IMG/VR virus record: IMGVR_UViG_2534682078_000036 | Location: 1-23,616 of that record | Reading direction: 5' to 3' (one strand) | Source of the DNA: a virus | Taxonomy: Duplodnaviria; Heunggongvirae; Uroviricota; Caudoviricetes | DNA length: 23,616 bases | Shown here: positions 18,001-23,616 of the stretch, in pieces | Layout: each line of letters opens with the position of its first letter | Position numbering within the stretch: position 1 is the first letter of the stretch | Program-made: the position numbers

Positions 18001-21000
18001 GGGAAAAGACAGACCGACAAGCTGGTCATGGGTATGGGTAGCACCACTCGCGCTAACAGCGAAGACTGCCTTTTTGCAGTGAAAGGAAATCTGCCTGAAC
18101 GCATTAACGCCGGAATAATCCAGTCATTCACTGCACCGCGCCTTGATCACTCCCGCAAGCCGGATATGGCGCGAGAAAAACTTGTGCAACTTCTTGGCGA
18201 TGTTCCCCGGATAGAACTGTTCGCCCGTCACACCTCGCATGGATTTGATGTCTGGGGTAACCAATGCGGAACACCATCCATTGAGATGGTTCCGGGTATT
18301 GTTAAATTTCTGGAGAAAACCAATGAGCGAAAAAACGACGTTGACAAAAGGCATCACCAGTTGAATTAAGGCAGTGCCTGGAAATCGCAAATCAACTTGC
18401 CAGAAGTGGAATACGCTTTGTTCCGATCCCGATCACAGCAGATACAGAACTTCATCTGTTTGGTGAAATTCTTTCCCGAAAGCTGGATGAACTGGAAAAG
18501 CTGGTAGAAGAAGCTGACACCTCACCAATCGCATAACACCCTGAACCGCCCCGGAAATCCTGGAGACTAAACTCCCTGAGAAAGAGGTAAACAGGATGAC
18601 TAAAAATACTCGTTTTTCCCCCGAAGTCCGTCAGCGGGCGATTCGTATGGTTCTGGAAAGTCAGGATGAATATGACTCACAGTGGGCGGCAATTTGTTCC
18701 ATTGCCCCAAAGATTGGCTGTACGCCGGAGACTCTGCGTGTCTGGGTTCGCCAGCATGAGCGGGATACCGGGGGCGGTGATGGTGGGCTCACCAGCGCTG
18801 AACGTCAGCGTCTGAAAGAGCTGGAACGTGAAAATCGTGAACTGCGCCGCAGTAACGATATCCTTCGCCAGGCTTCCGCTTATTTTGCGAAGGCGGAGTT
18901 CGACCGCCTCTGGAAAAAATGATGCCACTGCTGGATAAGCTGCGTGAGCAGTACGGGGTCGGACCGGTATGCAGCGAACTGCATATTGCCCCGTCAACGT
19001 ATTACCATTGTCAGCAACAGCGACATCATCCGGATAAACGCAGTGCCCGTGCGCAGCACGACGACTGGCTGAAGAGAGAGATACAGCGCGTATACGATGA
19101 AAATCATCAGGTGTACGGTGTGCGTAAAGTCTGGCGTCAGTTGTTACGGGAAGGAATCAGGGTGGCCAGATGTACAGTGGCACGTCTCATGGCGGTTATG
19201 GGACTTGCCGGTGTTCTCCGGGGTAAAAAGGTCCGTACGACCATCAGCCGGAAAGCCGTTGCCGCAGGCGACCGCGTAAACCGTCAGTTCGTGGCAGAAC
19301 GACCTGACCAGCTGTGGGTGGCTGATTTTACTTACGTCAGCACATGGCAGGGCTTCGTCTATGTGGCGTTTATCATTGATGTGTTTGCCGGATACATCGT
19401 GGGGTGGCGGGTCTCATCGTCTATGGAAACGACATTCGTGCTGGATGCGCTGGAGCAGGCGTTGTGGGCCCGTCGTCCGTCTGGCACCATCCATCACAGC
19501 GATAAAGGCTCTCAGTATGTGTCACTGGCCTATACGGAGCGACTAAAAGAAGCCGGATTACTGGCATCAACAGGGAGTACAGGCGACTCGTATGACAACG
19601 CGATGGCTGAGAGCATCAATGGTCTTTACAAAGCGGAGGTAATACACCGTAAGAGCTGGAAAAACCGTGCAGAAGTGGAACTGGCCACACTAACGTGGGT
19701 GGACTGGTATAACAATCGACGATTGCTGGGAAGGCTGGGCCATACTCCTCCGGCAGAAGCAGAAAAAGCTTATTATGCTTCCATCGGAAACGATGATCTG
19801 GCAGCCTGAGTTCACAGATAAAACACTCTCCAGGAAACCCGGGGCGGTTCACACCCACCGACATTAAAATATCAGGAGAAAAAAATGAACGCCGTACTCA
19901 CAGAATTGAACAAATTAGGAAAAGCAACAGCCGACAGCATTTCTAAAGGTCTCAATATTGATTTGAATGACGTCATTGATACGCTGTGGAAGTTGAAAAA
20001 CCAGGGGATCGTAAAGGTAAAAAACGGCATCTGGCAGGCAGTAGAGGGAGTTGGAAGCAAAACAGATATTGATTCAGTTCAACCAGTTCAGCCAGTGCAG
20101 AACAACATTATAGGTGACCTGCTACGTAAATCACGGAAAGAAGCGCGCCGCGCCGGGCGGAAACAGAAACGATGGGAGGGTGCATGTAAGGCGTTGCAAG
20201 AACTGAATAAATACCGTGACTTGATCAACGAATTGTCAGAGTGAACGTAGCGGGAATCCACGTCCTTTAGGGCGTGGATGATATCAGGCTGTTGAAATAC
20301 ATGTAGAAAAGGAGCGCATACTATGGAAGTCAACTTAATGACCGAAAAAGAGGTTTCTGATTTGTTACAAAAAAGGCGCACAGCTTTGTATAATTTGCGA
20401 AAAAAACACGGATTCCCGGAACCAGTACTTACTCATCCGGCGCGATATAGTCGTCAGGCCGTTGAACAATGGCTTAAAGCCGGAGGAATTAACCGAGCTG
20501 TTTAGCGTGCCAGAAAATTTTATCAGCATACAACTCATACGCATCTTTCTGTTCCGACAACCAGTCGTGTTTATTATACACGGCCATAACTCCCCCAAGT
20601 TCATGCCCCAGCATTTTTTCAGTGACGTGGGGCATAATTCCTTCCCCAGATAAATTCGTTACCAGAGAACGCCTAAAATCATGCGTTCTCCATTCAGGAA
20701 TATCAATTTTCTCCCTTAACTTTTTCATGTACAAATTAGCCGACGAACGATCAATAGGTTTATCTATTTCCTGCCCGGGGAATAGCACATCAAAACCCGC
20801 ATTAAGCAATCGCTCAATATAAGGCTCAACCTGAGTAAATATCGGACGCCGGATAATATTACCCATCTTTGAATGCTCTTTAGGGGTTGTCCAGACCAGA
20901 TCTTCCATGTTGAACTCACTGGCTGTAGCGAGACGTAGCTCAGAAAGCCTGGCCCCCCATAGCAATAGCAATTGATGTAACAGCTTGTTGGAAGTAACCA

Positions 21001-23616
21001 CTTTTGAGTTCTCCAGTGCCAGCCAGATCTTTGCCAGTTCCGTATAGGTAAGTACGCGACTCCCCACATCTGGTTTCTTCCCAATATTCTTTACACTAAG
21101 TTTGAGTAATTCGCATGATGGGATTAACTGGCGGCTGATACACCAGTTAATAACTGAACGCAGTTGTAACAACAGAACACGAGCCTTTTTCTTGTTGAGG
21201 CTTTCTTGCTTGTCAAAAAAGCGAGCCCAAGCCGATACAGGGATACCGGCAACTGGCGAGTCTTCAAACTGTGTGTACATAGTGTTGTACACAACAGATC
21301 TATAAAGCGTCTGAGTATTGGGTTTCAGGCCGCTAACATACTTATCCCACCACTGATCCAGGCATTCTTTTAATGTCAATTCGCCATCACTGGGGGCAAA
21401 ATAATTTTTAGGGTTAACTCCCTTCATGTACAATGCGCGCATCTCACCGACGATAACACGTGCGTCCTTCAGTGAAGTGGACGGATAGCGCCCGACAGTA
21501 AGACGTACTGGCTTACCATTCCAGCGATAACGGTACTGAAACGTGATAGTTCCTGCTGGAGTAATCCGCACACTTAACCCGTCACCATCGGTGATTTCAG
21601 CAGGGCCAGAGTAGGGTTTTCCGTATAGGCCTCGTAGTTTGGTGTCACTCAGTGCCAATGCTTTATATCCTGTACACAAGTTTATAATGTATTCTGTACT
21701 CAATATGTACGCATTAGCAAGTGAACAAAACACTTTTCAACGCAAAAGAAGATAATCAACCATGAACAAAAACGAACTTACACCTTGATTTTAAAACCAT
21801 AAAGACGGTATTATCAGTCATATGGTGAACAACCAAAATCAATACGCAACAACGTCCTCTTAGTTAAATGGATATAACGAGCCCCTCCTAAGGGCTAATT
21901 GCAGGTTCGATTCCTGCAGGGGACACCAGATACCCTTCAAACGAAATCTACCTTCACCCCGTAAAAGATAGGTTTGGCAGCACACTTGCCTTATATCTAC
22001 TCATTTTTACTGCAACAGGTTGAAATCTCAGCACTGTCAGAAAGCGCTGATGACTAAACAGCCCTGGGCCGGGCGATGTAACCATCACACAGAATCCTGA
22101 TAGCGAAATATGGCGTGACTCGATACTTTACTCCGCAATGCATTCCTTGATGAATTCGCAGGACCGTGATACACGGGACAGGTCGCTGAATGACGACAAT
22201 GTCCTGGAAATCAGCGAACCGCGCATCTGAAGTACATTTGAGCGACTGTACCAGAACATGAATGAGGCGTTTGGATTAGGTGATTATTAGCAGGGCTAAG
22301 CACTTTAGTATTATTATTTTCCGGTTGAGGGATAGGGAGATATCGACAACAACCGGAAAAGTTTACGTCTATATTGCTGAAGGTACAGGCGTTTCCATAA
22401 CTATTTGCTCGCGTTTTTTACTCAGGAAGAAAATGCCAAATAGCAACATCAGGCAGACAATACCCGAAATTGCGAAGAAAACTGTCTGGTAGCCTGCGTG
22501 GTCAAAGAGTATCCCAGTCGGCGTTGAAAGCAGCACAATCCCAAGCGAACTGGCAATTTGAAAACCAATCAGAAAGATCGTCGACGACAGGCGCTTATCA
22601 AAATTTGCCACGCTGTATTTGAAGACGGATATGACACAAAGTGGAACCTCAATAGCATGTAACAGCTTCACTAATGAAATAATCCAGGGGTTAACGAACA
22701 GCGCGCAGGAAAGGATACGCAACACCATAATCACAACACCGATAAGTAATGCATTTTTTGGCCCTACCCGATTCACAAAGAAAGGAATAATCGCCATGCA
22801 TAGCGCTTCGAGTACCACCTGGAATGAGTTGAGATAACCATACAGGCGCGTTCCTACATCGTGTGATTCGAATAAACCTGCATAAAAGACAGGAAAAAGT
22901 TGTTGATCAAAAATGTTATAGAAAGACCACGTCCCCACAATAAATATGACGAAAACCCAGAAGTTTCGATCCTTGAAAACTGCGATAAAATCCTCTTTTT
23001 TTACCCCTCCCGCATCCGCCGCTACGCACTGGTGATCCTTATCTTTAAAACACATGTTGATCATCATAAATACAGCGCCAAATAGCGAGACCAACCAGAA
23101 GTTGATATGGGGACTGATACTAAAAAATATGCCGGCAAAGAACGCGCCAATAGCATAGCCAAAAGATCCCCAGGCGCGCGCTGTTCCATATTCGAAATGA
23201 AAATTTCGCGCCATTTTTTCGGTGAAGCTGTCAAGCAAACCGCATCCCGCCAGATACCCCAGGCCAAAAAAGAGCGCCCCCAGAATTAGACCTACAGAAA
23301 AATTGCTTTGCAGTAACGGTTCATAAACGTAAATCATAAACGGTCCGGTCAAGACCAGGATGAAACTCATACACCAGATGAGCGGTTTCTTCAGACCGAG
23401 TTTATCCTGAACGATGCCGTAGAACATCATAAATAGAATGCTGGTAAACTGGTTGACCGAATAAAGTGTACCTAATTCCGTCCCTGTCAACCCTAGATGT
23501 CCTTTCAGCCAAATAGCGTATAACGACCACCACAGCGACCAGGAAATAAAAAAGAGAAATGAGTAACTGGATGCAAAACGATAGTACGCATTTCTGAATG
23601 GAATATTCAGTGCCAT

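Follow-up and report, generated by a model that had tools for sequence, protein, structure and literature searches.

The attR end of a Stx-phage-type prophage in the 5' part of argW and a candidate phage-borne promoter for the rebuilt tRNA gene

Where does a prophage end when its integrase lies on the 5' side of a tRNA gene, and which promoter then reads that gene? These questions are raised by a stretch of 23,616 nucleotides from a tailed phage record (Caudoviricetes; IMG/VR IMGVR_UViG_2534682078_000036, positions 1 to 23,616), which is referred to in its entirety as the window. In the window, a minus-strand tyrosine integrase gene (int) is followed by the plus-strand tRNA gene argW, which encodes tRNA-Arg(CCU), and then by the sucrose permease gene cscB. 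Elements that target tRNA genes normally recombine with the 3' part of the gene, and integration into the 5' part is rare but recognised (PMC6563490). A sequence-only reading of the window had noted that a 5'-side integrase is unusual, and the Islander collection agrees: among 3919 islands, 3760 carry a 3' tDNA fragment and 159 a 5' fragment, the latter being allowed, upstream, by the Islander scheme. That reading also put the prophage boundary outside the tRNA gene, at roughly 21734–21790, and left argW with its native promoter intact; neither of these proposals held. We conclude, with a probability of about 0.87, that positions 1–21877 of the window are the integrase-proximal part of a lambdoid prophage of the Shiga toxin (Stx) phage type, that 21659–21877 is its attR junction, and that the P arm of the phage rebuilds argW together with a promoter.

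The attachment core in argW

In Escherichia coli K-12, argW comes after yfdC, with a spacer of 75 bp between them. The tRNA gene of the window is identical to that of K-12 at 75 of 75 positions, through the CCA end, while the DNA directly upstream is unrelated; the 195 bp on the 5' side of argW have no similarity to the native yfdC–argW spacer. As a query for the empty site, we joined the end of K-12 yfdC, the native spacer and argW to the downstream flank of the window. Of 5426 complete E. coli genomes, 1412 contain this query without interruption, with a best identity of 99.9%. From nucleotide 25 of the tRNA on, the window runs into the host csc flank, just as the empty-site genomes do.

A homologous junction, 97.9% identical to that of the window, is present in E. 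coli O103:H2 strain 12009, where a 62-kb Stx2a prophage lies between yfdC and argW. At the distal end of this prophage the order is yfdC, native spacer, GTCCTCTTAGTTAAATGGATATAA, phage DNA, and the same displaced native spacer with a 5' argW stub was found in an IMG/VR locus (L040). The attP site can be read from the free phage Lyz12581Vzw (NC_049917), which has the window-type 195 bp, then the 24-mer, and then the sequence of the distal end; its megablast match to the window breaks off exactly at 21877. An attP locus in IMG/VR (L020) also passes from argW nucleotides 1–24 into unrelated DNA, and GenBank record LC645445 (Stx2_H27V05_argW) labels the same 24 bp 'duplication due to insertion'. 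The 24-mer is common to attB (K-12 and the empty sites), attP, the attL of O103:H2 12009 and the attR of the window. The core is nucleotides 1–24 of argW, and the prophage therefore ends inside the tRNA gene. The sequence-only reading had proposed to look for the att core at the distal prophage end, and that is where the strain 12009 copy stands. These comparisons of sequence establish the geometry of the junction, its core and the phage origin of the DNA upstream.

Could the phage instead attach in the intergenic DNA upstream of argW, at about 21734–21790, leaving the tRNA gene and its native promoter untouched? The integrase 5' of the tRNA and the promoter-like motif between them first suggest this arrangement. 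However, the 195 bp upstream are unrelated to the native spacer and recur in the free phage joined to only 24 nucleotides of argW, the native spacer and promoter stand at the other end of the prophage next to a 24-nt tRNA stub, and the empty-site genomes examined do not have the 21734–21853 sequence of the window upstream of argW. We regard intergenic attachment as very improbable. Less probable still is that the tRNA gene beside int is a complete cargo gene of the phage, with the true attachment site elsewhere. Stx phages do carry tRNA genes, such as ileZ-argN-argO, but the free phage has only nucleotides 1–24 followed by unrelated sequence, and from nucleotide 25 the window continues into the host csc flank like the empty-site genomes. 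Conventional integration at the 3' end of the gene was also considered for this phage and was rejected, as the duplicated sequence is the 5' 24-mer and there is no 3' repeat. A direct repeat of the tRNA 3' end at the distal end had been named beforehand as the sign that a different tRNA copy is the attachment site; no second copy of the argW 3' end, as a 15-mer or a 24-mer, was found in either half of the homologous O103:H2 prophage region, which has the 5' repeat instead.

One point weighs against the junction as we read it. There is no second copy of the 24-mer within the window, the distal prophage end falling outside it, so that attL has been read from homologous prophages, whose int regions are 96.6–100% identical, while the distal end of the source prophage lies beyond the window. 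We infer that strand exchange takes place somewhere within 21854–21877, and its exact positions are to be taken in the same sense. The D arm in the core holds an imperfect dyad, GTTAAAT GG ATATAAC, which, by analogy with the sites in anticodon arms and T arms, could represent inverted core-type sites flanking the overlap region.

The mechanism that we propose is as follows. The integrase would recombine attP, through a 24-bp core matching nucleotides 1–24, with host argW. With the core at the 5' end, insertion would carry the promoter of the host, with a 24-nt stub, to the far end of the prophage, about 60 kb away and beside yfdC. At the other end, the phage P arm would be joined to nucleotides 25–75 of host argW, bringing with it three arm-type sites near int, a sigma-70 promoter, a 39-nt leader and the 5' 24 nucleotides. 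The lysogen would thus retain a sequence-perfect tRNA-Arg(CCU) gene, read from the phage promoter. Judged from its sequence, argW in the window is a hybrid gene, with nucleotides 1–24 supplied by the phage or shared and nucleotides 25–75 from the host.

In the attL of O103:H2 12009 (locus L003, 1640–1860), the displaced native argW promoter faces the P' arm of the prophage. About 115 nt 3' of this promoter there is a GC-rich hairpin (1823–1851), CATGCCCCG...CGGGGCATG, followed by TTCTTT. The displaced promoter may make a short orphan RNA in lysogens.

For prophage delimitation, or for attL/attR polymerase chain reactions at the argW Stx site, the junction is to be placed inside nucleotides 1–24 of the tRNA. 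At attL, a tRNA stub is expected at the yfdC end, and no 3' repeat.

Phage DNA upstream of the rebuilt tRNA gene

Since 21659–21853 is the P arm in attP, the TTGATT/TATTAT motif upstream of argW is phage-borne. The motif had been identified correctly from the sequence alone, 18 nt of spacer included, but it is not the intact native promoter of argW for which it was taken. Taken alone, the match to the consensus does not exceed chance: 6 such sites occur, against 4.2 ± 2.2 in shuffled sequences. Is it nevertheless a promoter? The distribution of the arrangement among bacteria provides the material for an answer.

In GTDB, 20 of 33 loci with a relative of the integrase have a tRNA-Arg(CCT) gene divergent from int. 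Integrase identity at these 20 loci is 68–90%, plus two partial matches at 56% and 83%, and the 5' end of the tRNA is about 175–205 bp from the int start (193–198 bp in 16 of the 20). No fewer than 15 named genera of enteric bacteria have the int–argW arrangement, including Erwinia, Enterobacter, Pantoea, Brenneria, Xenorhabdus, Providencia, Tatumella, Salmonella, Morganella and Proteus, and further Rosenbergiella, Rouxiella and Limnobaculum. IMG/VR loci with 79–86% integrase identity have the same int–tRNA arrangement, and the integrase of the window itself is at argW in 203 of the 5426 complete E. coli genomes. By contrast, full-length relatives at 53–64% identity lack any tRNA gene closer than 1.5 kb to the start of int. 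By this comparison, integrases less than about 65% identical have lost or changed the specificity for the argW 5' end. These more distant relatives are from Gilliamella, Orbus, an Orbaceae bacterium, Buttiauxella, Erwinia, an Erwiniaceae bacterium, Pantoea, Rahnella and one E. coli.

We aligned 26 int–tRNA spacers, with junctions taken from IMG/VR by a scan for the 24-mer and from GTDB representatives by a scan for integrase relatives. The int-proximal block with its TGTAC repeats is near-invariant, whereas the 123 columns corresponding to 21731–21853 have a mean pairwise identity of 48%. Seven of these 123 columns are invariant, and every one is a promoter position: T21785, T21786 and G21787 (the TTG of the −35 element), G21807 (position −14, extended −10), and T21809, A21810 and T21814 (TAnnnT). 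A21813 is conserved at 96%. The hexamers are 18 nt apart in 26/26 spacers, and the distance from the −10 element to nucleotide 1 of the tRNA is 39 nt in 25/26. The alignment thus shows conservation of the promoter motif throughout the clade, and, read as sequence, the pattern is the signature of a sigma-70 promoter, unlike that of a generic protein-binding site. The integrase gene is divergent from the tRNA gene, so nothing co-directional lies upstream in attR and a dedicated phage promoter is needed. We therefore consider it likely that 21785–21814 works as the promoter of the rebuilt argW. Folding the leader with the tRNA keeps the cloverleaf; the predicted pre-tRNA leader is roughly 30 nt, and it would presumably be removed by RNase P.

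The other prominent features of the P arm are three direct TGTAC-centred repeats, CCTGTACACAA (21669–21679), TCTGTACTCAA (21693–21703) and TATGTACGCAT (21704–21714). Two further copies are present in the P' arm of the NC_049917 attP, which gives three in one arm and two in the other, at about 140–190 bp and 60–75 bp from the core. Because the integrase has an arm-binding domain, we read these repeats as its putative arm-type binding sites. There are also direct (G)TGAACAA(AA) repeats at 21722–21730, 21763–21771 and 21825–21832, one of them inside the pre-tRNA leader; conservation in other genera is partial. These may be sites for the AlpA-like excisionase described below or for another accessory protein. 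A site for integration host factor (IHF) at the −35 region was considered, and by-eye comparison with the IHF consensus gave no fit.

Several points argue against the use of the promoter. Its support is comparative conservation alone; the 18-nt spacer and −10 variants such as TAACAT and TAGGAT are suboptimal; and accessory recombination proteins might, in principle, use the conserved bases too. Furthermore, argW is dispensable in E. coli (PMC4652775), so expression of the rebuilt gene is not strictly required. An alternative with the same geometry is one in which the TTG...G.TAnnnT pattern would represent sites for recombination proteins (the arm-binding domain of Int, excisionase or IHF) and argW would be silent or weak in lysogens, which would be tolerable since argU also reads AGG. 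The arms of attP are dense with protein-binding sites, GAACAA-type direct repeats lie in the same arm, and the dispensability of argW and the chance-level frequency of the lone motif fit such a reading. However, the invariant positions are those that weigh most in sigma-70 recognition (−35 TTG, G−14, T−12, A−11 and T−7), and in 15 or more named genera both the 18-nt spacing and the 39-nt distance to the tRNA are fixed, whereas the bases between vary. The arm-type motif, TGTAC, is different and located elsewhere, and the conserved motif is directed at the tRNA, there being nothing else to transcribe in attP. We consider the protein-site explanation improbable, and a phage-borne promoter for argW remains the preferred reading.

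What would an exchange of promoters mean for the lysogen? The native argW promoter has an upstream FIS site, which is left behind at the other end of the prophage, and its discriminator is rich in GC, as is typical of promoters under growth-rate and stringent control. The discriminator of the phage promoter is AT-rich, and its 39-nt leader belongs to the P arm of attR, where the putative sites for recombination proteins are located. The open reading frames (ORFs) of the prophage, in a crude set from window positions 1–21700, contain about 6.7 AGG and 10.4 AGA codons per 1000. This usage is several-fold above the typical E. coli average, and agrees with the idea that continued expression of tRNA-Arg(CCU) is of benefit. 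That the exchange of phage for native promoter rewires the supply of this AGG-decoding tRNA in lysogens is a tentative idea, which we think rather unlikely. If it were true, the exchange could favour translation of the AGG-rich prophage and of other horizontally acquired genes, and binding of Int or Xis at attR could couple the tRNA level to the state of the prophage. Should tRNA-Arg(CCU) levels change, a modest effect on AGG-rich acquired genes in lysogens of Stx-producing E. coli would be possible.

Genes and repeats around the junction

Table 1. Features at the integrase end of the prophage and in the adjoining argW–csc region (positions in the window).
Feature	Position	Strand	Remarks
IS3-family insertion sequence (IS) element (IS629/IS1203-like), 1310 bp	18542..19851	+	25-nt terminal inverted repeats
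DUF1627-family prophage gene, 119 residues	19885..20244	+	Pfam PF07789, E = 5.8e-7
Hairpin ATCCACGTCC-TTTA-GGGCGTGGAT	20256..20279	+	Between the DUF1627 stop and the xis ribosome-binding site
AlpA-like helix-turn-helix gene, 60 residues	20323..20505	+	Pfam HTH_17, E = 1.4e-6
Tyrosine integrase, 389 residues	20489..21658	−	Pfam domains; RefSeq and phage annotation
Three direct TGTAC-centred repeats	21666..21714	+	Near-invariant in 26 spacers of many genera
Candidate sigma-70-type promoter	21785..21814	+	−35 TTGATT 21785–21790, 18-nt spacer, −10 TATTAT 21809–21814
Phage-derived pre-tRNA 5' leader region	21815..21853	+	39 nt, from the −10 element to tRNA nucleotide 1
Attachment-site core, attR copy (GTCCTCTTAGTTAAATGGATATAA)	21854..21877	+	argW nucleotides 1–24 (5' acceptor strand and D arm)
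argW, tRNA-Arg(CCT)	21854..21928	+	ARAGORN, sole tRNA in the window; Rfam tRNA 63.4 bits
Conventional attB at the argW 3' end (CTGCAGGGGACACCA)	21914..21928	+	No prophage here now; csc flank from 21929
Truncated DUF4942 pseudogene with internal stop	22138..22290	+	PF13708, E = 1.9e-5, profile positions 18–62 of 190
11-bp perfect inverted repeat, 22-nt loop	22317..22360		Arms 22317–22327 and 22350–22360; 8 nt past the cscB stop
cscB sucrose permease	22369..23616	−	ORF; RefSeq homologue annotated as oligosaccharide major facilitator superfamily transporter

The features discussed in this section are collected in Table 1. The position of the integrase on the 5' side of argW and on the opposite strand is as the sequence-only reading gave it. 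The C-terminal domain of the protein matches Phage_integrase (PF00589, 64.9 bits against a cut-off of 27.1, E = 1e-17, residues 202–364), and the N-terminal domain matches Arm-DNA-bind_3 (PF13356, 62.7 bits against a cut-off of 27, E = 3.6e-17, residues 3–85 counted from TTG 21658). The motifs GARLSELR, HDFRRS and MAVYNKH are, as judged by eye, at the expected relative positions. By its domains, the enzyme belongs with the P4-like tyrosine recombinases that carry an arm-binding domain at the N terminus. GTG 21733 is the start of the longest ORF, and the distance of about 120 bp between integrase and tRNA that was first reported fits this start. RefSeq homologues and phage records, however, annotate 389 residues, TTG 21658 is preceded by AGGA, and the protein then begins MALSDTKLR with the arm-binding domain from residue 3. 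The true start is most likely TTG 21658, which puts 195 bp between int and the tRNA. In E. coli JNEC-KY204 the DNA of int and the P arm is 100% identical to the window, and the two differ upstream of xis.

The AlpA-like gene is convergent with int and overlaps it by 17 bp. Its counterpart in phage MN067333 is annotated 'putative excisionase', and its product is a probable excisionase (directionality factor). The hairpin ahead of this gene, ATCCACG...CGTGGAT, which the sequence-only reading put forward as a possible regulatory site, does exist, although 7 nt away from the 20263–20285 given for it at first; its stem has 10 bp, including one G-U pair, and folds with z = −2.0. In relatives the hairpin is replaced by a different module of about 640 bp, and the copies that were found are identical. 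The region singled out by the sequence-only reading began at 19852, the base after the right end of the IS element. This element has orfA and orfB at 18596–19809 and an ALIL frameshift pseudoknot at 18877–18993 (Rfam), and its RefSeq homologues are annotated as IS1203 family. Relatives that lack it have DNA-methyltransferase and DUF1382 genes at that spot, to the left of the DUF1627 gene. Farther into the prophage, Rfam matches at gathering score occur at 2324–2522 (minus strand), 10804–10862 (plus) and 16546–16635 (plus). The families are C4 antisense RNA with a1/b1 targets and isrK, the lambda cIII thermoregulator, and sRNA-Xcc1; C4 antisense RNA and isrK make up an antirepressor control cassette of the P1/P7 type.

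On the 3' side of argW, similarity of the window to the native downstream flank of K-12 stops directly after CCA. In K-12, the element CPS-53 starts inside the last 15 nt of argW, and a 15-nt repeat, pawZ, is present. In the window the csc island begins at this point, with 440 bp between argW and cscB, and both the placement of cscB and the view that two acquired elements flank argW are borne out. In O103:H2 and in JNEC-KY204, cscB is followed by cscK, cscA and cscR, so that it is the first gene of the cscBKAR island, which replaces dsdC and the 5' part of dsdX (PMC3032704, PMC4366372). No 3' argW repeat that could mark an att duplication of the csc island was found at its far side. The DUF4942 remnant between argW and cscB comprises 45 residues and is annotated in JNEC-KY204; an older island at this 3' attB probably left it behind.

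The 11-bp perfect inverted repeat just past the cscB stop was also described correctly. On the minus strand its fold has an energy of −16.4 kcal/mol and z = −4.0, and no U tract follows. Since neither this repeat nor the hairpin at 20256–20279 has a U tract, neither is called an intrinsic terminator. In three strains the arms of the repeat are invariant and the 22-nt loop differs at 4–5 positions. The repeat is probably a 3' stem-loop of the cscB transcript, and the invariant arms and variable loop lend weak support to selection for a functional RNA stem.

At four IMG/VR loci (L079, L090, L092 and L112), a second integrase, 24–29% identical to the one described here, is located downstream of the same tRNA-Arg(CCT) gene, and the 5' and 3' sites of argW are therefore often occupied at once. 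O157 clade 8 also has a second, unrelated integrase on the 3' side of argW (PMC8309913). On the evidence of these sequences, argW has two independent attachment sites, and in the window both border acquired DNA. In LC645445 (positions 1–45), the prophage-side argW reads GGTTCGGTTCC rather than GGTTCGATTCC, which is A58G at a normally conserved T-loop position. This could be a real inactivating single-nucleotide polymorphism or a sequencing error.

Comparison with known systems

The gene argW is a standard integration site of Stx2a phages. In our literature search, neither the 5' polarity nor a phage-borne promoter was spelled out for the Stx phages at argW, which are described only as 'integrated into argW'. 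Both may be under-described, and they follow directly from a known class: reversed polarity of the target gene was reportedly treated by Zhao and Williams in 2002 (J Bacteriol 184:859, as cited in PMC6563490). What the window shows is the attR end of a Stx-family prophage whose type, with reversed polarity of the tRNA gene, is already known. It provides a clean and widespread enterobacterial case of such integration. Here a promoter has to come with the element, and the candidate promoter is seen under selection in no fewer than 15 named genera. The case also means that a single gene of 75 nt has two independent sites for attachment, one 5' and one 3', and that both can be occupied together.

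The closest systems are the short-tailed lambdoid phages of Stx type at argW: those of O103:H2 12009 and O157:H7 clade 8 (TW14359, 'intW'), Stx2-converting phage 86, Lyz12581Vzw, and LC645409–LC645451. The int, xis and P arm of the window are 96.6–100% identical to E. coli genomes and 99.6% identical to the top phage records, and the 24-bp core, the yfdC–argW position and the lambdoid mosaic of the early region are the same. Unlike these prophages, the window stops short of the stx region, which by comparison with O103:H2 would be about 25 kb beyond its left end; Stx-negative relatives exist. Two further differences are the IS629/IS1203-like insertion and another module upstream of xis. Among the complete E. 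coli genomes of the collection, the best covers 83% of the window.

With other reversed-polarity elements the prophage shares the displacement of a 5' tDNA fragment upstream, a 5' segment carried by the element, which would need to bring a promoter, and an integrase beside the rebuilt gene. It differs from them in its enterobacterial host, in the tRNA (Arg-CCU), in its enterobacterial integrase clade, and in that the element is a functional phage. KplE1/CPS-53, Sf6, HK620 and Kapi1 likewise target argW with a tyrosine integrase and keep the tRNA intact. However, the core of these elements, 16–17 bp, is the 3' end of argW (PMC8787464); they are inserted downstream of the gene, and the stub that remains, pawZ, is a 3' fragment. 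Their attP is between int and xis (PMC8787464), whereas here int and xis are convergent at one end of the prophage. Finally, as in attP sites of the lambda type, the integrase has an arm-binding N-terminal domain and repeated sites are present in both arms. The TGTAC-centred sites and their spacing, by contrast, are specific to this clade, and one arm holds a candidate promoter that would be functional only after integration.

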